Below the pieces are notes generated by a model. That model saw only the letters and a program-made list of their open reading frames with translations. It was not told the origin of the DNA and did not search any database. This document shows positions 5,299-49,128 of a stretch of DNA of 64,000 nucleotides, piece after piece (position 1 is the first letter of the stretch; every line of letters begins with the position of its first letter). Source of the DNA: Anaerolineae bacterium (lineage in GTDB: Bacteria; Chloroflexota; Anaerolineae; B4-G1; DUEL01); NCBI GenBank assembly GCA_034434635.1, contig DAOTYX010000079.1, positions 16,212-80,211 on the forward strand, written 5' to 3'. Made by a program: the position numbers and the translations under genes.

Positions 5299-5380
5299 GA
5301 ATCCCCGGTTCGTAACCGCCCAGCCTGTGCCCTCTCGCAGGTCCTGGCGCAAGCGCCAGCACCTGCGGGAGGGTGTACAC

Positions 5381-6752: not shown

Positions 6753-6776
6753 GGGCGCGGTCTTCCGACCGCGCCC
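6753..6776. terminator. GC-rich hairpin GGGCGCGGTC-ttcc-GACCGCGCCC downstream of the PIG-L gene (repeat family C).
   Basis: A perfect 10-bp stem. The same stem sequence recurs at 8326, 17241 and 49105. It lies 3' of the minus-strand gene ending at 6791. The preceding ~20 nt are tandemly duplicated (cgccgtgccgggcg(t/c)ggtct). Confidence 0.45.
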
Positions 6777-6790
6777 CTACAGATGGGAGA

Positions 6791-8228: not shown

Positions 8229-8325
8229 GCGCGTCTCCTGTGTATGCTGTCAGGGCAGCGGCTGGCGGGCCAGGGGACGGCCAGACTATACCATCATCGG
8301 CGTGGTTGCGCAAGTGGAAAAGATT

Positions 8326-8348
8326 GGGCGCGGTCTCCGACCGCGCCC
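8326..8348. terminator. Family C hairpin GGGCGCGGTC-tccg-ACCGCGCCC downstream of the beta-helix gene
   Basis: The same stem as at 6753 and 49105. It lies 3' of the minus-strand gene ending at 8374. Confidence 0.4.
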
Positions 8349-8373
8349 AACGGCGACTCGACGAGACGGAGCG

Positions 8374-10572
8374 CTAGCCGTTGCGCAGCACCAGCGGCAG
8401 GTAGAGATAAGGCAGTTCGTCTGCCCCCACGTCGGGGGCCGCGCCCATCGGGCGCGGGTCTCCATCCATGTCCCACGCCACCCAGACCAGGGGGGTGGCA
8501 TGATTGATAGCGTTGGAGCCAAGGGTCAGGTGGTAATCCGCCGCCAGCCCTGCTGGTCCGGGCACTTCGTTTGTGCTGGTAACCCCCACCCCATAGTTGG
8601 CCCCGTTGCCCTCGAAGAGCGTGTGGTCAGCAGTGACCGTGCTGCCCCCCGGCGAGGCATTGACGATGCCCGTCGTCTGGCTGACGATGATGGTGTTGGT
8701 CAGCCACACCGTGCTCGATGCGCCGACGTAGACCCCCACGCCGTCGCCAAACCGGTTTTCGGCGATAGTGTTGTGCGCCACGCGGCCATTGACACCGCCG
8801 CTGCCAGCGATCGCCACCCCGCTGCCCTGCGCGCTGGTCGCGGCAGTTGTGGTGATCCCATTGCGGGCGACGATGTTGTTGGTCAGGGTGAAGATGTCGC
8901 TTGCCGTCAGATCTACGCCTCCACCCACACCACCGCTCGTGCCGATAGCCCGGTTATCCAGGATGATGTTGCCCTCCAGCCAGGGGTTGCTGCCTCCGAT
9001 TGAGAAACCGCCGCCATATCCCCATTCCGCGCCTCCGTCGCCGGTGGTGTTGCTCAGGACCTGGTTCCCAACGAACCGGGGGGCGCCGGCCCAGACATAA
9101 ACGCCGCCGCCCACTCCGCGCGCGTTGGTCCCGCAGGCGGCTTCATTGCGGGCGATCAGGTTGTCCTGGACAAGGGCGTTGCTGTTGTGGAGCGCCATCC
9201 CGCCGCCGTAAGCCCATTCGCCGGGCGCCCAGACAACCGTATCGTTTTCAGCGATGACATTGTCCCGGAGTACCCCGCTCCCGCCGCTGACGTAGATGCC
9301 GCCACCCTCAGCAGGGGCGCCGGAGGAAGCGGTGTTACGGACTATCTGGTTCTCCACCACCGTAGCGTCGCACTCTTCCAGGTAGAGGCCGCCGCCATAG
9401 CCATTGGCAGCGTAACTGGCGCGGTTGCCGTCGGAAATGACGTTGCCGGCCACCAGCGCGGCAGCGGAGAGATGCGAGAGGTACATCCCCCCGCCCAGAC
9501 CCCGCGGGCCGGTAGTGGCGGTGTTGCCATAGACACGATTGTCGCGGATGAGAGCAAGAGGGCCGCCAAAACAGATGCCCCCGCCCCGGTTGTAGAGGCC
9601 CGCGCTGGCCGTCCCCTGCAGCGCGATGTTCCCGTCGAAGAGGTTGCGCTCGATGGTCACCGGCGAGCCGGAGGAGACATAGATGCCGCCGCCGTTGCCC
9701 ATCACGCCCTGACCGGCGACGTTCTGCAGAAAATCGTTGTCGGCGATGAGCGGGCTGCCGCCGACCACCGCGATCCCTCCGCCGTCACCGGCCGAGTGGC
9801 CGGCGCGGTTGGCGCGGATGGTGTTGGAGAGCACCTGCGGCGAGGCGTTCACCAGATAGATGCCGCCCCCCTGCCCCCAGGTGGCGTCGTCGGCGACATT
9901 GTTGGCGATGAGGTTGTCGCTGATGACGGCAGAGGCAGAGACGGTATCCAGGAAGATGCCGCCGCCGCGCCCATAGCCGGTGCAGGCCATCGTTGTGCAG
10001 CCATAGTTAGCGGTGATGATGTTGCTGAGGATGATGGGGGCCGCGTCCTGCACGGCGATGCCGCCGCCGTGGTTGGGCTGATCGGTGGCCCCTCCGGCGT
10101 TGCCGTTGGTGATGGTAAAGCAAAAGATAGTGGGGCTGGCATGGGTGATGCTGATCACCCGCTGGGTCCCATCCCCGCTCAGGACCACGTTCTCCGGCGC
10201 GCAGGGTACGGAAGTGAAGGTCCACCCTCCCCCAAAGGGGTTCGGGTGAGCCGCCCATGCCCCGTCCAGGGTTACGGACCTGGTGATGATGATCGTGCCG
10301 TAGTAGGTCGAAGCGCCGGCGATGTCATCGCGGTCGGCCACGCAGATCCTCTCGCCAGCCGAGGCCCTGCTCAGGGCATACTGGACACTCTTGCACGGGT
10401 CGTTGGGGTTGTCACAGTGATTGGTCGAACTGTTGTTGCCGCCATTGACCACATAGCGGTCGCAGACGGGCGCGGCCTGGCCGGGCTGGCTGGTCAGCGC
10501 CAGCAGGCTCCAGACGAGGAGAGCCAGCCCCAGGGCCAGGCTCAGGACGATCAGCCAGTGTTTCGCCTGCAT
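8374..10572 (-). CDS. Secreted right-handed parallel beta-helix repeat protein (pectate-lyase/NosD-like fold)
   Basis: An N-terminal signal peptide (MQAKHWLIVLSLALGLALLVWSLLA) and numerous periodic GGGIY/GGGG repeats typical of parallel beta-helix repeats. The 999-aa plus-strand ORF 9187..12186 is antisense to this gene and its neighbour. Confidence 0.6.
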   Translation of the reverse strand: MQAKHWLIVLSLALGLALLVWSLLALTSQPGQAAPVCDRYVVNGGNNSSTNHCDNPNDPCKSVQYALSRASAGERICVADRDDIAGASTYYGTIIITRSVTLDGAWAAHPNPFGGGWTFTSVPCAPENVVLSGDGTQRVISITHASPTIFCFTITNGNAGGATDQPNHGGGIAVQDAAPIILSNIITANYGCTTMACTGYGRGGGIFLDTVSASAVISDNLIANNVADDATWGQGGGIYLVNASPQVLSNTIRANRAGHSAGDGGGIAVVGGSPLIADNDFLQNVAGQGVMGNGGGIYVSSGSPVTIERNLFDGNIALQGTASAGLYNRGGGICFGGPLALIRDNRVYGNTATTGPRGLGGGMYLSHLSAAALVAGNVISDGNRASYAANGYGGGLYLEECDATVVENQIVRNTASSGAPAEGGGIYVSGGSGVLRDNVIAENDTVVWAPGEWAYGGGMALHNSNALVQDNLIARNEAACGTNARGVGGGVYVWAGAPRFVGNQVLSNTTGDGGAEWGYGGGFSIGGSNPWLEGNIILDNRAIGTSGGVGGGVDLTASDIFTLTNNIVARNGITTTAATSAQGSGVAIAGSGGVNGRVAHNTIAENRFGDGVGVYVGASSTVWLTNTIIVSQTTGIVNASPGGSTVTADHTLFEGNGANYGVGVTSTNEVPGPAGLAADYHLTLGSNAINHATPLVWVAWDMDGDPRPMGAAPDVGADELPYLYLPLVLRNG

Positions 10573-10635
10573 CTTGCACCTTCTCTCGTGTCTGTCACCT
10601 CTGAGGTGACCGTCACCTGCCCCTCGCGTGCCCGT

Positions 10636-12117
10636 TCAGGGCGCAACCGCGATGGAAGCCCACCTCTGGGCCATCAGATCCAGGGCGAAGACATAGTCAT
10701 AGCCGTCCGGGTAATCAATGACCCGGATCAGCCAGCCGTTCTGGGTGGGCTGCAGCAACAGGCTCACCGCCCACTCCCGGTCGCGCGGCCAGCCCAACCG
10801 GTCGGAGGCCCACAGACCATTCTCACACCAGACCTTGCCGAAGCCACGCACGGGCAACTGGTAGCCGGTCGGCGCGGTCATCGAGGCGCAGTCGGGGTGC
10901 ACCGACGGCTGGCTCTCGTCCCACAGGTCGTTGTAGGAACTGAGCCATCTCCCGTTCTGCGTCGGGTAACCGGACTCGCTCCCGAATCCCAGGGCGTAGA
11001 TTCTCCGGGTGTCCGACCGCCAGATCATGAAGGCTCCCATCCGGGCGTGCGGGTTGGGATTCTCAGGGTTGGTCTCGAATTTCTGGAAGGCCCCGTAGAC
11101 GGAGATGGAGGAAGCGGTGGGACAGCCCGGGTTGACGCCGAAGCCGCTGGCCACGCTCACGACTGGCTCCAGGAAGGGGTCCATGGTGGTACATTCTCCC
11201 GACTCCACCGAGACTTCCTGTCCTTGCGCGTTGTTGTCCTCGTTCGTCTCGGCGATCACGTCATCGGGGTCTATCTTGATGCAGACGAAGTGATGCCAGA
11301 CTTCGTTGATGGTGACCAGGTAGTCCACCGGCAGGGATTGTCCGGGGTTCAGGCTCACCGTGGTTTGATAGAGGGTGTTGAACGTCGAGGGGTAGTAGCA
11401 GGTGGTGTGAGGGGTGGGCAGGCGGTTCTCGATCCGCACGGTTACGTTGGACAGGGCGGTAGAGCCGCTGTTGTGCAGCACGGCACGGACGTGGAACGGC
11501 GTACCTGCGGTGGGGGTGGTCGGGTCGAAGGTGAGGTCGGTGACCCGCAGATCGGGCAAGCCAGCGGGCGGGACGGTCGGCGTGACGGCGACGACGATCT
11601 GGACGTAGACGACCGCGCCGAAGCGGGTGCCATCAGGCCGCTGCAGTTGCCAGTTGCCCTTGTAGGTGCCGGGGGAAGAAGGGGCCGTCAGGTTGACGCT
11701 GACGTCGGTCGTCGCGCCAGGGGCGACGGCTCCCACAGCCACGCCGGTCGGCCCGCCCAATGCGTCGCCGGAAATGAAGACCAGCATCGTCCCCGCCTCC
11801 CAGGCGCAGGTGCCGCTGTTGCGCAACCGCCAGGTCTTGACGAAAGGGGTTCCCGGCGCGAAGGGGGTGTTATCGGGCACGGTCATATCGGCAACAAAGG
11901 CGGCGTTGAAGGCACAGCCGCCAGGACCGTATACATCGGGAGGGGTGGTGCTGGTCGGTTCGGGGGGGGACACCGTTGGCGTGATCCCTCCCACCTCGGG
12001 CGGCATGGTGATGGTGGGCGCAATGGGCGGCGTTTCCGTGGCTGCCGGGCCGCAGGCCAGCGCGGCGGTAACCATCAGGGCCAATCCCACCAAGACGACC
12101 AGACGGGATTTACGCAT
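10636..12117 (-). CDS. Secreted lipoprotein with CARDB-like domain(s)
   Basis: Signal peptide with a lipobox (LAAALAC). A PT-rich linker. PDLRVTDLTFDPTTPTAGTPFHVRAVLHNSGS resembles a CARDB domain. Confidence 0.45.
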   Translation of the reverse strand: MRKSRLVVLVGLALMVTAALACGPAATETPPIAPTITMPPEVGGITPTVSPPEPTSTTPPDVYGPGGCAFNAAFVADMTVPDNTPFAPGTPFVKTWRLRNSGTCAWEAGTMLVFISGDALGGPTGVAVGAVAPGATTDVSVNLTAPSSPGTYKGNWQLQRPDGTRFGAVVYVQIVVAVTPTVPPAGLPDLRVTDLTFDPTTPTAGTPFHVRAVLHNSGSTALSNVTVRIENRLPTPHTTCYYPSTFNTLYQTTVSLNPGQSLPVDYLVTINEVWHHFVCIKIDPDDVIAETNEDNNAQGQEVSVESGECTTMDPFLEPVVSVASGFGVNPGCPTASSISVYGAFQKFETNPENPNPHARMGAFMIWRSDTRRIYALGFGSESGYPTQNGRWLSSYNDLWDESQPSVHPDCASMTAPTGYQLPVRGFGKVWCENGLWASDRLGWPRDREWAVSLLLQPTQNGWLIRVIDYPDGYDYVFALDLMAQRWASIAVAP

Positions 12118-17120: not shown

Positions 17121-17264
17121 AGCCAGCGCACCCCCGTGCGCTGGCGCATCTCTGTGCCTCGGCAGGCGGCTTTGGGGTGCCGCCCCACGGCAATCCGGGC
17201 AGGCACATGGGTAAGGGAGACCGTCAAACAACACGATGCTGGGCACGGTCTCTTGACCGCGCCC
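17121..17264. repeat. Intergenic cluster of three hairpins: GCCAGCGCAC-cccc-GTGCGCTGGC, a family A element (17164..17183) and a family C terminator (17241..17264)
   Basis: Three perfect or near-perfect inverted repeats between the rplS stop (17343) and the GT4 start (17056). Confidence 0.5.
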
Positions 17265-17342
17265 AGCACTGGAAGGCAGTGGGCTGCCGGGATTGGGAGG
17301 CAACCGCACAGGGAACCGTGTAGGGACGCAGTAAACCGCCCC

Positions 17343-17693
17343 CTATGGGCGCTGTTCCTTCATGCGGGCGGCCTTGCCGCGTCGCTCGCGCAGGAAATAC
17401 AGCCGGGAACGACGGGCCTTGGCCTGCCGGGTCACTTCCACCTTCTCCAGGCGCGGAGAGTACAGAGGGAACGTCCGCTCGACCCCGATGCCGTGGGAGG
17501 CGACACGCCGAACGGTGAAGTTGGCCGCCGCGCCGCCTTTGCGCACGCGGATGACCGTGCCCTGAAAAACCTGCACCCGCTCCCGATCCCCTTCGACAAT
17601 ACGGGCATGCACACGAACGGTATCCCCCGGCCGTATGTGGGGGATGTTGGGATTGGCTTCCAGTTGTCGCTCCAGAGACTCAACCAGGTTCAT
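17343..17693 (-). CDS. rplS: 50S ribosomal protein L19
   Basis: MNLVESLE…[32 protein letters not shown] is the canonical L19 N-terminus. Confidence 0.9.
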
Positions 17694-17782
17694 CGCACTG
17701 TTACCTCGCAGACGGTTGCCCCATGGGGCGAAGGCGGATTATACCACAAACTGGCGAACGGGCAACCCGTCTTACGAAGGTA

Positions 17783-17821
17783 ACAGGCACCTCGCAGGTG
17801 CCCGTCATCTGAGGTCACCTG
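17783..17821. repeat. Family D element ACAGGCACCT-cgc-AGGTGCC…TGAGGTCACCTG overlapping the stop codon of the M23 gene
   Basis: ~39 nt closely similar to 27143..27181. It supplies the in-frame TGA (AGG TGA) of the minus-strand gene ending at 17815 and a downstream hairpin. Confidence 0.5.
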
Positions 17822-19401
17822 GGGGTGTTGTCGGAAAGGAGACCGTTGATCTCGTCTACAGCGCATTGACAGGCCTCGCGCACCTGCCCCCCGCGCACCA
17901 TCCGCCCGTCATACTCCTGGTCAGCCTGCTCCGCGGTCCAGCCGGACAGCACCAGCGGGAGCGGACCGCTGCCTGCGGGCAGCCACTCCCCATTATAGCG
18001 CCGGGCGAAGTGGAGATGGGTGGCGTCAGCGTAGCCGCCCTCACACGACGGATGGCCAATAGCCTGGCCCTGCTCCAGCCACGTGCTGGCCTCCACCCGG
18101 TCCTGCGCCGCGATGTGCATATACGTGAGCACCCAGCCGCTCTGCTCGTAACCGTCGCCGTCCAGATCCACCACCACCTCGCCGTAGTCGCTGCGCAGGA
18201 CCAGGCCCGGCGCGGCGGCAGTGACCCAGTCGGCGGTGACGGTGCAGCCTAACTCGTCGGCGGGGGCGAAATCGAGCGCCGCCCAGCCACTGCCACGCCC
18301 CCAGCCACCATGGGGACCACCCGTCAGGTACCAGGTCTCCCCCTCCGGCCACGGCAGGCGGAGTTCGGGCTGCGTCAGCCCCGGCGGCAGCAGCGGCTCC
18401 ACCCCATAGGCGAAGGGGTTGCCAAAGAGACGCTGGTAAGTGGCGGCGAAGCCGTCCGGTCCCACCGCCGCCGTCCACTCTGCGCCATAGAATAACTGTC
18501 CCAGAAGGCTCTGCACGGCCACCGTGCCGGCATTCAGGCCCGGTGAGATGCCCATGCGGCTGCCGTCGGCCAGGTGGATGACCGTCCAGTCGCCGTACTT
18601 CCAGCCATAGTAACCGCTGTTCAGTTCCGCTGCCGTCCAACTCAGCTGCTCGAACAGCCCCGCCTGGGTGCCCTGGTTGACCGTCACCGGATGTTCGAGG
18701 GTGTCGGCGGGCGGGTCGGGATCGGTGACCCAGCCGGCGCGCAGTTCCAACAGCGCCAGCAACACGCGCGGACCCACGCTGTACCGCTGCGCCACCAGGC
18801 GCACGATCTCGGCGCCGGTCAGCGTGTGTCCCTCCACTTCCTGAGTATAGCCGGCCAGGTAGCCGGACTGCGCGGCGACGAAGCCCTCCAGGTCGAAATG
18901 GATGTAGGCGGGGCCGTAGACCAGTTCGCTGTCGGGCAGGAGTTTGACCGCCGGGCCGAACTGGCTGGCACCGACGGGGATGGTCAGCCGTTGGCCGGGC
19001 CAGATGGCGTCGCCAGTGAGGCCATTGGCGGCGGCGATCTCGTCCACCGTGCAGTCGAAGGCGTAGGCGATGCCGCTCAGCGTGTCGCCGGTCTGCACTT
19101 CGTAGACCTGGGAGCGGGTGGGGTCGGGCCGGCCCGTCGGGGTTGGGTTGGGTGTGGGAGTGGCATCGTAGACGCCGGGGTAGGCGGGAGTCGGTGTGCC
19201 GCCTGGGGTGAGAGGAGGTTGCGCCCCCCGTTGGCCGACAGTCAGGTGTCCCGCCCCACCTGGCGGGTTCTGCAAGGCGATCTCCTCGCCAGGGGAAGGC
19301 GCTATCGGGCGCAGGCTGAGGAAGATCAAGACCGCGGCCAACATCAGCGCGACGACCGCGGCTCCGCCGATGAGGTGGGAGGAATCTCGTGTTACTTTCA
19401 T
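17815..19401 (-). CDS. Secreted LysM domain-containing M23 family metallopeptidase
   Basis: Signal/TM (HLIGGAAVVALMLAAVLIFLSL), LysM (YEVQTGDTLSGIAYAFDCTVDEIAAANGL) and a C-terminal M23 domain with GHPSCEGGYADATHLHF. The start is taken at MKVTRD. Confidence 0.7.
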   Translation of the reverse strand: MKVTRDSSHLIGGAAVVALMLAAVLIFLSLRPIAPSPGEEIALQNPPGGAGHLTVGQRGAQPPLTPGGTPTPAYPGVYDATPTPNPTPTGRPDPTRSQVYEVQTGDTLSGIAYAFDCTVDEIAAANGLTGDAIWPGQRLTIPVGASQFGPAVKLLPDSELVYGPAYIHFDLEGFVAAQSGYLAGYTQEVEGHTLTGAEIVRLVAQRYSVGPRVLLALLELRAGWVTDPDPPADTLEHPVTVNQGTQAGLFEQLSWTAAELNSGYYGWKYGDWTVIHLADGSRMGISPGLNAGTVAVQSLLGQLFYGAEWTAAVGPDGFAATYQRLFGNPFAYGVEPLLPPGLTQPELRLPWPEGETWYLTGGPHGGWGRGSGWAALDFAPADELGCTVTADWVTAAAPGLVLRSDYGEVVVDLDGDGYEQSGWVLTYMHIAAQDRVEASTWLEQGQAIGHPSCEGGYADATHLHFARRYNGEWLPAGSGPLPLVLSGWTAEQADQEYDGRMVRGGQVREACQCAVDEINGLLSDNTPR

Positions 19402-19486
19402 CTGTTCGGAGTGTAACACAAACCGGGATGCGAGGCAAACCGGATACCAGGGGGGGCCAGGCACCCCCTGGCACCTCCAGACTCAG

Positions 19487-19515: not shown

Positions 19516-19760
19516 GACGGTGTCTCCTGCGGAGGCCTGAAGGTCGTAGCCCCTGGAGGCCGCAGCCCTTCAAGGCCATAGCCCTTCAACGCCGTAGCCC
19601 CGGCATCCCAATGCCGGGGCGGCAGGGAGTACAATGGCGGTGTCTCACGCGGAGGCCCGAAGGCCGTAGCCCTTCAACGCCGTAGCCCCGGCATCCCAAT
19701 GCCGGGGCGACCGCGGAGGCCTGAAGTGGCAGGTACCTGGAAGGTGCCTGGCACCTTTGG
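19516..19760. repeat. Tandemly duplicated structured region (two ~85–115-nt units, each ending in the family A hairpin GCCCCGGCATCCCAATGCCGGGGC) with an internal 18-mer duplication
   Basis: Unit 1 spans about 19512..19625 and unit 2 about 19626..19710. Both contain tacaatg(a/g)cggtgtctc…gcggaggcc…gtagccc…cttcaacgccgtagcc. Flanking small palindromes are ccagggggggccaggcaccccctgg and ggtgcctggcacc. Confidence 0.6.
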
Positions 19761-20618: not shown

Positions 20619-20631
20619 GGTGCAGGGCCTT

Positions 20632-20686
20632 TGCCACGAATGGCACGAATTGCACGAATCCTTTGTCCAATTCGTGCCATTCGTGG
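20632..20686. terminator. Perfect 20-bp-stem hairpin between convergent genes, built from three tandem 9-mers (gcacgaat-n) and their inverse
   Basis: GCCACGAATGGCACGAATTG (20632..20651) and CAATTCGTGCCATTCGTGGC (20667..20686) are exact reverse complements. It lies between the M48 gene (+) and the nitroreductase gene (-). Confidence 0.55.
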
Positions 20687-20700
20687 CAGCCGATCACCCC

Positions 20701-27097: not shown

Positions 27098-27142
27098 CGT
27101 GAACCTCCGTTTGTCGGGCGGTGCCAGGTGAGTTACCAGGTG

Positions 27143-27181
27143 ACAGGCACCTATCAGGTGCCTGCCACCTGACGTCACCTG
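27143..27181. repeat. Family D element ACAGGCACCT-atc-AGGTGCCTG…TGACGTCACCTG overlapping the stop codon of the thioredoxin-like gene
   Basis: Closely similar to 17783..17821. It provides the AGG TGA stop of the gene ending at 27175 and a 9-bp-stem hairpin. Confidence 0.5.
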
Positions 27182-27687
27182 AGCAGGCGTTGAATCTCCT
27201 GGCGCAGGTGCTCTTCCGTACCTGTGCCGTAGCCGATGTCACTCATCAGGATCGTGCCGTCAGCGGCGATCAGGTAGAGGGTGGGCGTGCCGCCGACGCG
27301 GTAGGCACTGGAGGCCCTGCCGTTCTCGTCCAGGACGGTCAGCAGAGAAACCTCGGCATCGTCCAGCGCCCGGTGCGCATCATCGGCGGAACCCATGCAG
27401 ATGGTGATCAGCACCAGATGCTCATCAGCGAACTCCTCTTCCAGGGCTGCCAGGACCGGCAGCTCTTCCAGGCAGGGAGGTCAAGAGGGACTCCAGAAGT
27501 CGAGCAGGACAGGACGCCCGGCGTAGTTGGAGAGGGAGATGTCGGCCCCTTCCAGGCTGGTGAGGGTGAAATCCGGCGCGACGGTGCCGTTCTCCAGCGG
27601 CCCGACCCCAAACAGCGAGAGCAGGCAGCAGGAAGAGAGGGTCGCCAGCGTCAGCAAGATGACAGAGATGTGGCTCTTCACCGGCAT
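27175..27687 (-). CDS. TlpA/ResA-like thiol:disulfide oxidoreductase with an in-frame TGA at the first Cys of the CxxC motif (candidate selenoprotein, UPPC)
   Basis: Signal peptide/TM, then APDFTLTSLEGADISLSNYAGRPVLLDFWSPS-[TGA 27483..27481]-PPCLEELPVLAALEEEFADEHLVL…GGTPTLYLIAADGTIL. This is collinear with TlpA (…VLLNFWASWCPPCR…). An AGGAGA RBS is present. The ATG overlaps the stop of the upstream peptidase gene. A hairpin GCUGCC-GGUCCU-GGCAGC starts 17 nt 3' of the UGA. Confidence 0.5.
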
Positions 27688-29015
27688 TCTCCTGTGGTCA
27701 GGCTCGTCTCGTGCGCCCAACCTCCGCTCCGCGAACAGCGGAGCCGGATGACCAGGCCGAGCGTCATGAGTCCCGCCGCACCGGCGCAGGGCAGGCAGGG
27801 AAGCGCGGGGGCGGGGGATGGCGCAAGTGGTGCGCTGGTGGGCCGTGGAGGGACGGTGGGGCGCTGGTCGGGCGGGCGTGGTGTGGCGCCGGTAGCGTTG
27901 GGGATGGGGGTGGGATAGGTGCCGGCTTTCTGGCCCAGCCATTCCCACCAGGCCTGTTGGAACTCCTCGAAGTTCAGGCCGGTCGCCTCCAGCAGGGCCT
28001 CGTCGGTGTTGCTGCCGGCGCGGAAGGCGGCCAGCAGGCGGCTCATCCCCTCGCTGCCCCAACGCTCGAACAGGAAAGTCACCGCGCTCAGGCTTTCCGC
28101 GTAGAGCAGGGCGACGCGCTCCTCATCGCCGGAGAAACTGCCGGTGGCCAGGCGCAAGGGAATCAACTCGCCGCTTCGGGCAGCCTCCTCCACGCGCCGC
28201 AGGGCGGCATCTGGGGGAAAGAACTCGAAATACTGGGCGAGACCCTCGTTCAACCAGGTGGGTGGGTAAGTGCTGAAGGCGTCACCGTGCACGACCTGGT
28301 AGAAGTAGAGGTGGGCGATCTCGTGCGGAATCACCCCGCGCAGGTACCATGGGTTGAGGGTCGCCTCCTGCGGCGGGATGATCTGCACGGTCAGCCCCAT
28401 CTCCGTGAATGCCTGCCCTCCCACCCATTCCTGCACGTACTGATGCCATGAGGCGAAGTCCTCGGCGTTACCGTACACGACCACCACGATCTGGTTGGGC
28501 AGAGACGTGCCTGTTGTTTCCTCCATCGTCTTGATGGCACGGTCGGCCCAGTTGAAGACTTCCTGGCCGAAGGTCGCGTCCCCGTCGTACCACCAGATCG
28601 CCAGATCCCCGTTCTCCAGAGTCTGCCAGTCGAAGCGGGAGTCCACGACGGTGAACTCCTCCGCCTCGCTGGTGAGCGCATGGCCAGCGTCGTCGCGGAT
28701 GGTCCAGGTATAGTGGACGCGGGCGCCAGGCGGGATGCCCCGCCGGCGCGGCGCCCAGTCCGCCTGGGCGGTCACCTGAGGGCCTGGCGTGAACTCGGCC
28801 ACCAGGACCTCGGTCGAGGAGTCGCCGCGGATACCGATGTTGAGCGTCACGCTGCTGATGTCCCCCTGAGCGGTGCTGGCCTCGACCTGGAAGGTGATAT
28901 TTTCCGGGTAACTGTTGGTCACTGTCGTTGCGCCGATGGTGATCGGGTTCTCGGCCTGCAGCGGGGGGGCCAGGAGGGAAAGGAGAAGCAGCACCGTCGG
29001 CCAGTGCGGGTTCAC
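27678..29015 (-). CDS. Secreted zinc metallopeptidase, Peptidase_MA-like (HExxH…NEGxAxY)
   Basis: A signal peptide follows the GTG start (VNPHWPTVLLLLSLLAPPLQA). The motifs are HEIAHLYFYQ and WLNEGLAQYFE. A PT-rich linker leads to a C-terminal hydrophobic segment plus basic tail. The GTG start overlaps the TGA of the radical SAM gene (GTGA). Confidence 0.55.
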   Translation of the reverse strand: MNPHWPTVLLLLSLLAPPLQAENPITIGATTVTNSYPENITFQVEASTAQGDISSVTLNIGIRGDSSTEVLVAEFTPGPQVTAQADWAPRRRGIPPGARVHYTWTIRDDAGHALTSEAEEFTVVDSRFDWQTLENGDLAIWWYDGDATFGQEVFNWADRAIKTMEETTGTSLPNQIVVVVYGNAEDFASWHQYVQEWVGGQAFTEMGLTVQIIPPQEATLNPWYLRGVIPHEIAHLYFYQVVHGDAFSTYPPTWLNEGLAQYFEFFPPDAALRRVEEAARSGELIPLRLATGSFSGDEERVALLYAESLSAVTFLFERWGSEGMSRLLAAFRAGSNTDEALLEATGLNFEEFQQAWWEWLGQKAGTYPTPIPNATGATPRPPDQRPTVPPRPTSAPLAPSPAPALPCLPCAGAAGLMTLGLVIRLRCSRSGGWAHETSLTTGECR

Positions 29016-35851: not shown

Positions 35852-35924
<73 letters not shown>

Positions 35925-35964: not shown

Positions 35965-36038
35965 GGGCCCGTAGCGCAGTCTGGGAGCGCGTCTCAATGG
36001 CATTGAGAAGGCCGAGGGTTCGAATCCCTCCGGGTCCA
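35965..36038 (+). tRNA. tRNA-Ala (anticodon GGC)
   Basis: Acceptor GGGCCCG/CGGGTCC with G3:U70. D arm GCGC-AGTCTGGGA-GCGC. Anticodon arm TCTCA-ATGGCAT-TGAGA. T arm GAGGG-TTCGAAT-CCCTC. Discriminator A. Confidence 0.9.
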
Positions 36039-40253: not shown

Positions 40254-41299
40254 GTGAGAGGCAACAACCCTTGCGCGTCGTCGCTTACCATGACCCCGCC
40301 GCCTTCGACTACCTGGCGGAGGAGTGGAGCAGTCTGTTGCATCGCTCCGCCGCCGACAGCCCCTTCCTCTCCCCCGCCTATCTGCACGCCTGGTGGCGCC
40401 ATCTGGGCGAAGGAGAACTGCTCCTGCTGACCGCCCGTGCGGACACCGCACTGGTCGGCGTGGCCCCGCTCTTCGCGGTCGAGCGGGCCGGCGCTGGCTC
40501 GCTCTTGCGCGTCGTCGGCTGCGAGGAGGTATCCGACTACCTGGACTGGATCGCCGCGCCAGGACAGGAGGAAGCGGTGCTGGAGGCATTGCTGGCATTC
40601 CTGGCCAGCCCCATGGCGCCGCCGTGGACGACGCTGGTGCTGTGCAACGTCCACCACGACTCCCCCACCCTGCGCCTGTTGCCCGCGCAGGCCGCCGCGC
40701 GCGGCTGGCCGGTGGCGACGGAGGTACAGGAGGTCTGCCCGGTGGTGACCCTGCCGGCCACCTGGGAGGAGTACCTGGCCGCGCTGGACAGCAAGGACCG
40801 TCACGAACTGCGCCGCAAACTGCGCCGGGCGGAGGCCGCCGAAGGGCTGCACTGGTACCTGGTGGGGCCGGAAGATGACCTGGACACAGCGGCGGAGGAC
40901 TTCCTGACGTTGATGGCACGCAGTTCACCCGCCAAGGCAGCCTTCCTCACCCCGCCGATGCGCGCCTTCTTCCACGAACTGACCCGCGTCGCCGCGGCCA
41001 ACGGCTGGCTGCAACTGGCTTTCCTGGAACTGGACGGGCGTCCGCTGGCCGCTTACTTCAACTTCGTCTACAACAACCGCGTGCTGGTCTACAACTCCGG
41101 GCTCGACTGGCAGGCGGACCCCGGCCTGGGCGCGGGCATCGTCCTCACCGCCTTCCTTATCCGCCATGCTATCGAGGAGGGGCGCCAGGCCTACGACTTC
41201 CTGCGCGGCAGGGAGGCATACAAGTACCGCTTCGGCGGCCAGGACGTGCCGGTACACCGCATCACGATCACGGCTCAACCGGGCGGCACCCATACGTGA
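40250..41299 (+). CDS. GNAT-fold FemAB/BioF2-like acyl/aminoacyl-transferase family protein
   Basis: The ATG overlaps the upstream stop (ATGA). 349 aa with C-terminal AYFNFVYNNRVLVYNSGLDW…AYDFLRGREAYKYRFG typical of the Acetyltransf_6 (FemAB-like) family. Confidence 0.55.
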   Translation: MSERQQPLRVVAYHDPAAFDYLAEEWSSLLHRSAADSPFLSPAYLHAWWRHLGEGELLLLTARADTALVGVAPLFAVERAGAGSLLRVVGCEEVSDYLDWIAAPGQEEAVLEALLAFLASPMAPPWTTLVLCNVHHDSPTLRLLPAQAAARGWPVATEVQEVCPVVTLPATWEEYLAALDSKDRHELRRKLRRAEAAEGLHWYLVGPEDDLDTAAEDFLTLMARSSPAKAAFLTPPMRAFFHELTRVAAANGWLQLAFLELDGRPLAAYFNFVYNNRVLVYNSGLDWQADPGLGAGIVLTAFLIRHAIEEGRQAYDFLRGREAYKYRFGGQDVPVHRITITAQPGGTHT

Positions 41300-41436
41300 C
41301 GACAGACCACAGACCACAGACCACGGACCACGGATCACAGACCACAGACCATCAAGTACAGTTCGTCATCGTGGTCCGTCGTCCGTCGTCCGTGGTCCGT
41401 CGTCCGCGGCCCGTCGTCCGTCGTCCGTGGTCCATC
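41300..41436. repeat. Heptad-repeat palindrome: (CAGACCA/CGGACCA)x8 on the left arm, a 15-nt centre, and (TGGTCCG/TCGTCCG)x9 on the right arm
   Basis: Tandem 7-mers read directly. The arms are largely reverse-complementary, giving a potential ~55-bp imperfect stem. It is intergenic between the FemAB-like and PHP genes. ORFs 41296..41505 and 41166..41450 are artefacts of it. Confidence 0.7.
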
Positions 41437-45137: not shown

Positions 45138-45235
45138 CGTCGGACTGACCTTCACGAACCGGGCAGAGAGTTCGAGCAATTCGTGTAATCCGTGGCCAAA
45201 GGAGCCGTTCTGGGCCGCCACCAGCGGATGCGCGG

Positions 45236-49104: not shown

Positions 49105-49128
49105 GGGCGCGGTCGGGAGACCGCGCCC
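49105..49128. terminator. Family C hairpin GGGCGCGGTC-ggga-GACCGCGCCC between convergent genes
   Basis: A perfect 10-bp stem between the PSP1 gene (+) and the GH1 gene (-). Confidence 0.45.

Follow-up and report, generated by a model that had tools for sequence, protein, structure and literature searches.

A probable REP family of Anaerolineae overlapping the stop codons of two unrelated genes

Two homologous elements found at the 3′ ends of two unrelated genes of an Anaerolineae bacterium are very probably single REPs, members of a palindromic family of the RAYT-mobilised type (here called family D) that is widespread in Anaerolineae/Chloroflexota. The DNA analysed was a 64-kb stretch with 66% G+C, hereafter the window, and the two elements, copies A and B, lie at the ends of a TlpA-like Sec thioredoxin-fold gene (Sec-TlpA) and of a LysM/M23 peptidase gene (17815..19464), respectively, both of which are encoded on the minus strand. 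The existence of RAYT-like ORFs flanked by the hairpins of this family in related genomes led to the conclusion that family D consists of REPs and has a cognate RAYT clade, and its members are probably a mobile, dispersed palindromic element. A literature search based on the arm sequence and on palindromic repeats of Anaerolineae retrieved no earlier description of the family, which is apparently a new REP family of a known type, undescribed so far.

A repeat search of the window paired positions 17778-17821 with 27138-27181 (44 nt, 84% identity), and a 39-nt degenerate consensus matched only these two sites in the window and none in 100 shuffles, which corroborated the homology that a preliminary description had claimed for the elements at 27143 and 17783. 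When GGCACCT-N3-AGGTGCC was sought with up to two mismatches, six matches were found in the window versus 0.5 expected, and four copies of family D were recognised there. Copy A (27125..27181, minus strand), which in gene sense reads CAGGTGAC-GT-CAGGTGGCAGGCACCT-GAT-AGGTGCCTGTCACCTG, separates the Sec-TlpA gene from a PNPOx-like gene, and its orthologous copies are perfect in locus L122 and decayed in L123, where a different hairpin is found beside it. Copy B (17778..17821, minus strand), with the gene-sense sequence CAGGTGAC-CT-CAGATGACGGGCACCT-GCG-AGGTGCCTGTTACC, is situated between the stop of the M23 peptidase gene and a promoter-like site, TTGCCC-16-TG-TATAAT (17738..17765, minus strand), upstream of rplS (17343..17693). 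The preliminary description had also noticed a partial third copy at about 19733..19757; a copy is indeed present there, but it is a full hairpin (copy C, 19726..19754, plus strand, GTGGCAGGTACCT-GGA-AGGTGCCTGGCAC) and lies not at a gene end but between the starts of the M23 and M48 peptidase genes, which are transcribed divergently. The same intergenic region contains, at 19556-19709, direct repeats of about 50 nt (the copies at 19572 and 19660 being 98% identical), each with a perfect hairpin GCCCCGGCAT-CCCA-ATGCCGGGGC. The fourth copy (~10585..10620, minus strand) is a degenerate GTCACCT/AGGTGAC variant, CAGGTGACGGTCACCT-CAG-AGGTGACAGACAC, that begins 17 nt past the stop of the gene at 10636..12117 and ends ahead of the start of the gene at 8374..10572, these two genes being in tandem. 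In the window, the 9-mer CAGGCACCT/AGGTGCCTG occurs almost only within hairpins, and the count of the 7-mer is unremarkable in comparison with its permutations. DNA uptake sequence pairs, as in the DUS-type terminators of Neisseria, were rejected as an identity for the elements, given this confinement of the 9-mer to hairpins and the lack of a single-copy excess. An Rfam scan of the whole window at the gathering threshold retrieved only two tRNAs (35852-35924 and 35965-36038) and no match to family D.

The stems are longer than the 9-bp hairpin that had been described at first. The inner stem of copy A comprises 17 bp (27172-27156 paired with 27152-27136, loop GAU), and its outer part has UCACCUG (27131-27125) as 3′ partner, so that the compound hairpin at 27125-27181 reaches –50.7 kcal/mol (z = –6.4). 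In copy B, 12 bp are formed (17807-17796 with 17792-17781, loop GCG), including two G.U pairs in the mRNA sense. The stem starts 2 nt past the stop codon in copy A and 7 nt past it in copy B. Over 56 nt, copy A folds at –32.9 kcal/mol (z = –4.9) as gene-sense RNA versus –27.5 kcal/mol for the other strand, a difference made by G.U pairs, which in copy B permit the canonical hairpin in the sense strand only; copy C folds better as the plus strand. On these folding predictions, the G.U pairs that favour the gene-sense fold of A and B hint at a use at the RNA level.

Outside the window, the family was traced through its core, (C)AGGTGnCAGGCACCT-N3-AGGTGCCTGnCACCT(G), each copy being a GC-rich palindrome of about 33-35 nt. 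A scan of GTDB genomes with the 9-bp-stem core CRGGCACCT-N3-AGGTGCCTG gave at least 116 loci, which, among the matches listed, belong mostly to multi-copy MAGs of Anaerolineae/Chloroflexota (at least 16 copies in H71_738, at least eight in the LacPavin MAG and at least four in an Ardenticatenaceae MAG), while lone core matches in unrelated phyla, also among those listed, resemble chance terminator stems. In the multi-copy MAGs, the palindrome reaches …GTGCCAGGCACCT-N3-AGGTGCCTGGCAC…, and the stems of the family are conserved with loops that vary freely, the modal perfect stem having 15 bp. The copies are dispersed and mainly extragenic, with a preference for sites shortly after coding sequences: 62.5% of 48 family hairpins have, within 45 nt on their upstream side, the end of an ORF of 150 codons or more, versus 12% of random positions in the same loci. 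Several loci of KSB1 MAGs (L012, L021, L024, L047, L060, L067, L081 and L114, among others) carry a multi-copy sister variant with the same 10-nt core, in which AAACAC/GTGTTT flanks and A/T tracts resemble bidirectional terminators. In related MAGs, some family hairpins are apparently located inside long ORFs or encode C-terminal tails (L110, 2797-3662; L052, 5400; L054, 2334); an ArnT-like ORF of 787 codons contains two of them, and tails such as …KVPGTCEVPGT* are found elsewhere. It is possible that such hairpins inside ORFs represent in-frame REP insertions.

The association with RAYT genes was established by tblastn, using as query an E. coli RAYT sequence, which matched ORFs of L030, L042 and L086 that directly adjoin family hairpins. 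Each of these ORFs exceeds the Pfam cut-off for Y1_Tnp, and in the NCBIfam scan, which covered L042 and L086, the best match was the ‘REP-associated tyrosine transposase’ (REP_Tyr_transpos, E = 3e-20 to 4e-21), with scores of 72-75 bits, just under the 80-bit equivalog cut-off. Hairpin clusters are present on both sides of the ORF in L030 and L086, and a single hairpin on each side in L042. This RAYT clade comprises 2588 homologues at E <= 1e-20, many of which bear the JGI name ‘REP element-mobilizing transposase RayT’. In three further RAYT homologues (L127-L129), AGGTGACAGTCACCT-N3-AGGTGACTGTCACCT is found about 15-20 nt before the start codon; it corresponds to the window stem with one compensatory G/T + C/A exchange, the same variant as in copy 4. 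In total, the family directly flanks RAYT genes in six related loci. No RAYT gene was found within the 64-kb window, and no conserved GTAG/CGTC tag in the flanks of the window copies or of those adjacent to RAYT genes; CTAC-GTGCC is read only by a minority of the H71/LacPavin copies. Genes located between paired hairpins in L031, L110, L009 and L089 were considered as RAYT candidates and proved to be ordinary genes.

As had been stated at the outset, in both genes the TGA and the sense codon before it are contained in the element: the Sec-TlpA stop (27175..27177, minus strand, …RLLR*) falls inside the 5′ CAGGTGAC, and the peptidase stop (17815..17817, minus strand, …NTPR*) inside the same shared 8-mer. 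What had been taken for a distal palindrome around these stops really repeats the opening 8 nt of the hairpin’s own 5′ arm. The preliminary description went on to propose, in its strong form, that the inserted element had cut or replaced two native C-termini and now supplies both stops and terminators, a proposal that we regard as improbable. It can draw on the location of both stops in the shared 8-mer, at which the similarity between A and B begins exactly, on REP-free orthologues that are one residue longer (RLLRD*, TPPR*/TPPD*) and on relatives where the reading frame of a real gene continues through the hairpin, as in the case of the L052 methyltransferase. However, when the C-termini were compared, the element-free orthologues were found to end within one residue of the window proteins, in tails that are themselves variable. 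All 120 M23 orthologues from Anaerolineae MAGs end in NGL(V/L)SDN followed by 2-5 variable residues, e.g. AP, TPPD, TPPR or TPPQ, and those that are element-free end in SDNTPPR*, SDNTPPD* or SDNAP* versus SDNTPR* in the window. Three M23 loci with 69-71% identity are without any such element; two of them have the codon endings ACC CCG CCC CGA TGA and ACC CCA CCG GAC TGA, where the window has ACC CCC AGG TGA, and the third, L120, has an unrelated ending, GTA GAC GGT AGA CAG TAG. Regarding Sec-TlpA, the closest orthologues, L122 and L123, end in CTG CTC AGG TGA and CTG CTC AGG TAG (…RLLR* in both), with the PNPOx-like gene downstream, whereas L121, without the element, ends in …RLLRD*. The terminal Arg is also found at the REP-free loci L121 (AGA) and L119 (CGA). 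Since the C-termini match those of REP-free orthologues within one residue, no meaningful C-terminal alteration is recognised: the proteins have changed by no more than about one residue, in a tail that is variable, and the claim of a C-terminal truncation is refuted.

Nor is the overlap unusual, as it had been called. ORFs adjoining a REP often owe their stop codon to its terminus (Di Nocera et al. 2013, PMC3733652), and the overlap recurs in relatives within the family (L052, L059, L094, L102, L127 and L128). The stop adjoins the stem in L094, L102 and L105, the GatB stop is in the hairpin loop in L059, the methyltransferase of L052 runs through the hairpin to a distal TGA and acquires the tail KVPGTCEVPGT*, and the RAYT genes of L127 and L128 have their own stops in the REP arm.

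The claim that the hairpins act as terminators was not borne out either, which also weighs against the strong form. Because a U-tract is absent 3′ of the hairpin in both A and B, these are not canonical Rho-independent terminators, and a terminator scan of the window calls neither site. Among high-GC family members, the 8 nt past the stem contain a mean of 1.8 T, with no strand asymmetry. Copy A occupies a 77-nt spacer, and it is probably intercistronic, as suggested by the conservation in two other organisms of the Trx/PNPOx pairing and of the downstream RBS and start (ACAAACGGAGGTTCACGATG); copy C, placed between divergent genes, cannot terminate either neighbour. Past copy B, there is a good promoter-like site for rplS. 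Another explanation would regard the hairpins as independently evolved U-less (‘I-shaped’) terminators, or as sites for dimeric DNA- or RNA-binding proteins, rather than as mobile repeats. Hairpins just past stop codons, arms that are conserved around a variable 3-nt spacer, and low-GC relatives that embed the core between A- and T-tracts in the manner of bidirectional terminators would all suit this explanation, which is nevertheless very improbable, considering that each genome contains dozens of occurrences of the same 13-15-nt arm, which is also present on either side of RAYT genes, that no asymmetry between downstream T and upstream A is seen, that copies occupy divergent intergenic regions and possibly the inside of ORFs, and that, in the window, the 9-mer shows no excess outside hairpins.

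As REPs located on mRNA, the hairpins would act like those of E. coli, as barriers to 3′ exonucleases or intercistronic stabilisers, and by this analogy mRNA 3′ protection or differential stability are their likeliest roles. A role in damped translation termination may possibly be added: because the stems begin 2 and 7 nt past the stop, they could stall terminating ribosomes and damp the expression of the upstream gene. In the summary given in PMC12306157, E. coli REPs less than 16 nt from a stop codon are described as stalling ribosomes and lowering upstream gene expression (Liang et al. 2015). Selection on copy B looks weak. The strain variant L126 is 99.67% identical over 12.9 kb, yet it carries two substitutions in the 44 nt of this copy, a synonymous AGG to CGG change in CAGGTGAC and a stem-breaking G to A change, and two SNPs in 44 nt between 99.7%-identical strains argue against strong selection.

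The stops themselves can be traced to the structure of the REP. The REP 5′ arm normally begins with CAGGTGAC, in the form (C)AGGTGACAG[G/T]CACCT, and copies A and B possess an extra 10-nt 5′ unit, CAGGTGACNN, that repeats the start of the REP’s own 5′ arm; from a comparison of these sequences, the stop-bearing CAGGTGAC appears to have arisen by duplication of the beginning of that arm. In L122, a perfect 10-nt tandem duplication follows CT (CAGGTGACAG|CAGGTGACAG|GCACCT), and A and B show the same 10-nt periodicity with few substitutions. At the Trx locus, the duplication arose before the lineages of the window, L122 and L123 diverged. A MITE was rejected, as terminal inverted repeats bounded by a target-site duplication were not found: neither element is flanked by direct repeats, and CAGGTGAC is repeated on one side only. 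The simplest history for the stops would have two steps: a REP would once have adjoined the gene, with AGG-TGA within its 5′ arm, and its first 10 nt would then have been duplicated, leaving the stop just outside the stem. In A and B, the AGG-TGA of the 5′ unit is now the last codon and stop.

For copy B, a different origin can be considered, in which a 44-nt block (last codon, stop, duplicated arm and REP) was brought from an A-like locus onto the M23 end by transposition or ectopic conversion. Its similarity to A starts precisely at CAGG, the duplication at the Trx locus predates the split mentioned above, M23 orthologues at 69-71% identity are without the element, and the duplicated architecture was not found elsewhere in JGI metagenomes, where a scan with the 26-nt form CAGGTGACNNCAGNTGNCNGGCACCT gave two unrelated matches only, in a collection that does not hold the source population’s own contig. 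However, that same gap in the collection leaves room for further copies, as does the fact that 64 kb of the genome were covered, so that other copies with the 5′ unit may exist, and the polarity between donor and recipient is not provable; such a secondary origin is possible but rather unlikely. Alternatively, A and B may both descend from a master copy; the 5′ unit may belong to the mobile element, or it may have arisen as a local duplication and been transferred afterwards from one locus to the other. A bolder generalisation is decidedly unlikely, namely a portable ‘gene-end cassette’ consisting of a REP and a duplicated arm piece with in-frame AGG-TGA, which would be copied from gene to gene, overwriting the last codon(s) and the stop of the recipient and placing a 12-17-bp stem 2-7 nt past the stop to tune termination, together with the spread of one REP core and its RAYT clade across Chloroflexota and into KSB1.

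Read as REPs, the elements of family D resemble the REP/BIME and REPIN systems with RAYT of E. coli and Pseudomonas (PMC3733652) in being short GC-rich palindromes whose stem is conserved while the loop varies, present in multiple copies mostly just downstream of ORFs, often overlapping stop codons, and clustered on both sides of a Y1 (RAYT) gene, with G.U pairs that suggest an RNA-level use. They differ from them in that the unpaired GTAG/CGTC tag typical of most described REPs (the super-families of Di Nocera) is missing, the perfect stems are very long (15-18 bp) with a 3-nt loop, one core is shared across many Chloroflexota genera and also by KSB1 MAGs, and the window itself has no RAYT. 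With the E. coli REPs lying within 15 nt of a stop (Liang, Rudd & Deutscher 2015, in the summarised form), A and B share a stable stem at 2 and 7 nt past the stop, here in an uncultured organism and with a predicted effect on ribosomes. Like Rho-independent terminators, A and B are GC-rich hairpins directly past a gene, and B stands ahead of a separate promoter; unlike them, A and B lack a U-tract and belong to a repeated sequence, of which one copy is probably inside an operon and another has divergent genes on its two sides. A further resemblance is to the palindromic elements of Rickettsia (RPEs) and to intragenic REPs, which are also palindromic repeats with coding potential, as seen where genes read into the hairpin in L052, L054 and L059; in the window copies, however, the overlap is limited to the last codon and the stop, with no in-frame internal insertion.

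No new mechanism is revealed by these observations, since family D behaves as REPs are known to. Nevertheless, the REP reading explains a class of intergenic hairpins met by gene callers and terminator predictors across Anaerolineae MAGs, and it warns that protein tails such as …PGTxEVPGT*, as well as short contigs breaking at these repeats, may be REP artefacts or REP-encoded. For studies of REP mobility or of REP-mediated translation control, it also provides a concrete example of a REP and its RAYT from an uncultured phylum.

Several neighbouring features were also recorded. The TlpA/AhpC-TSA-like gene (~27175-27690, minus strand) has an in-frame TGA (27481-27483) at the first Cys of its CxxC motif, in the context FWSPS-U-PPC versus FWASWCPPC in homologues, and a hairpin, GCUGCCG-GUCC-UGGCAGC, about 20 nt downstream of it; because this TGA is conserved at the Cys position in L121-L123 and the hairpin lies so close, the gene is likely to encode a selenoprotein with a SECIS. 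The combination of the terminal UGA and the hairpin of copy A as a second SECIS was judged unlikely by inspection, as the hairpin has a GAU triloop and read-through would add only six codons before UGA-UAG. A second palindromic family, GGGCGCGGTC-N3/4-GACCGCGCCC, is present at intergenic or gene-end positions (6753-6783, 8324-8350, 17237-17268 and 49105-49128). Just past the M48 peptidase gene, a 59-nt hairpin (20631-20689) has a 27-bp stem of CACGAAT-like units, with an inverted relative 24 kb away (45153-45199), and exactly the space between two convergent genes (5326-5377) is occupied by a hairpin whose stem has 23 bp. Tandem heptamer arrays at 41298-41436 (GACCACA… and the partial complement CGTCGTC/GTCCGTC) make up a long imperfect inverted repeat, and similar GTCCGTC runs adjoin REPs in the Anaerolineae MAG L076. 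Finally, L126 differs from the window at 10401-10506, within the gene of a large secreted repeat-rich protein (8374..10572), where eight substitutions are clustered in 48 nt and an indel of 12 nt is found; elsewhere, the 12.9 kb are about 99.8% identical.
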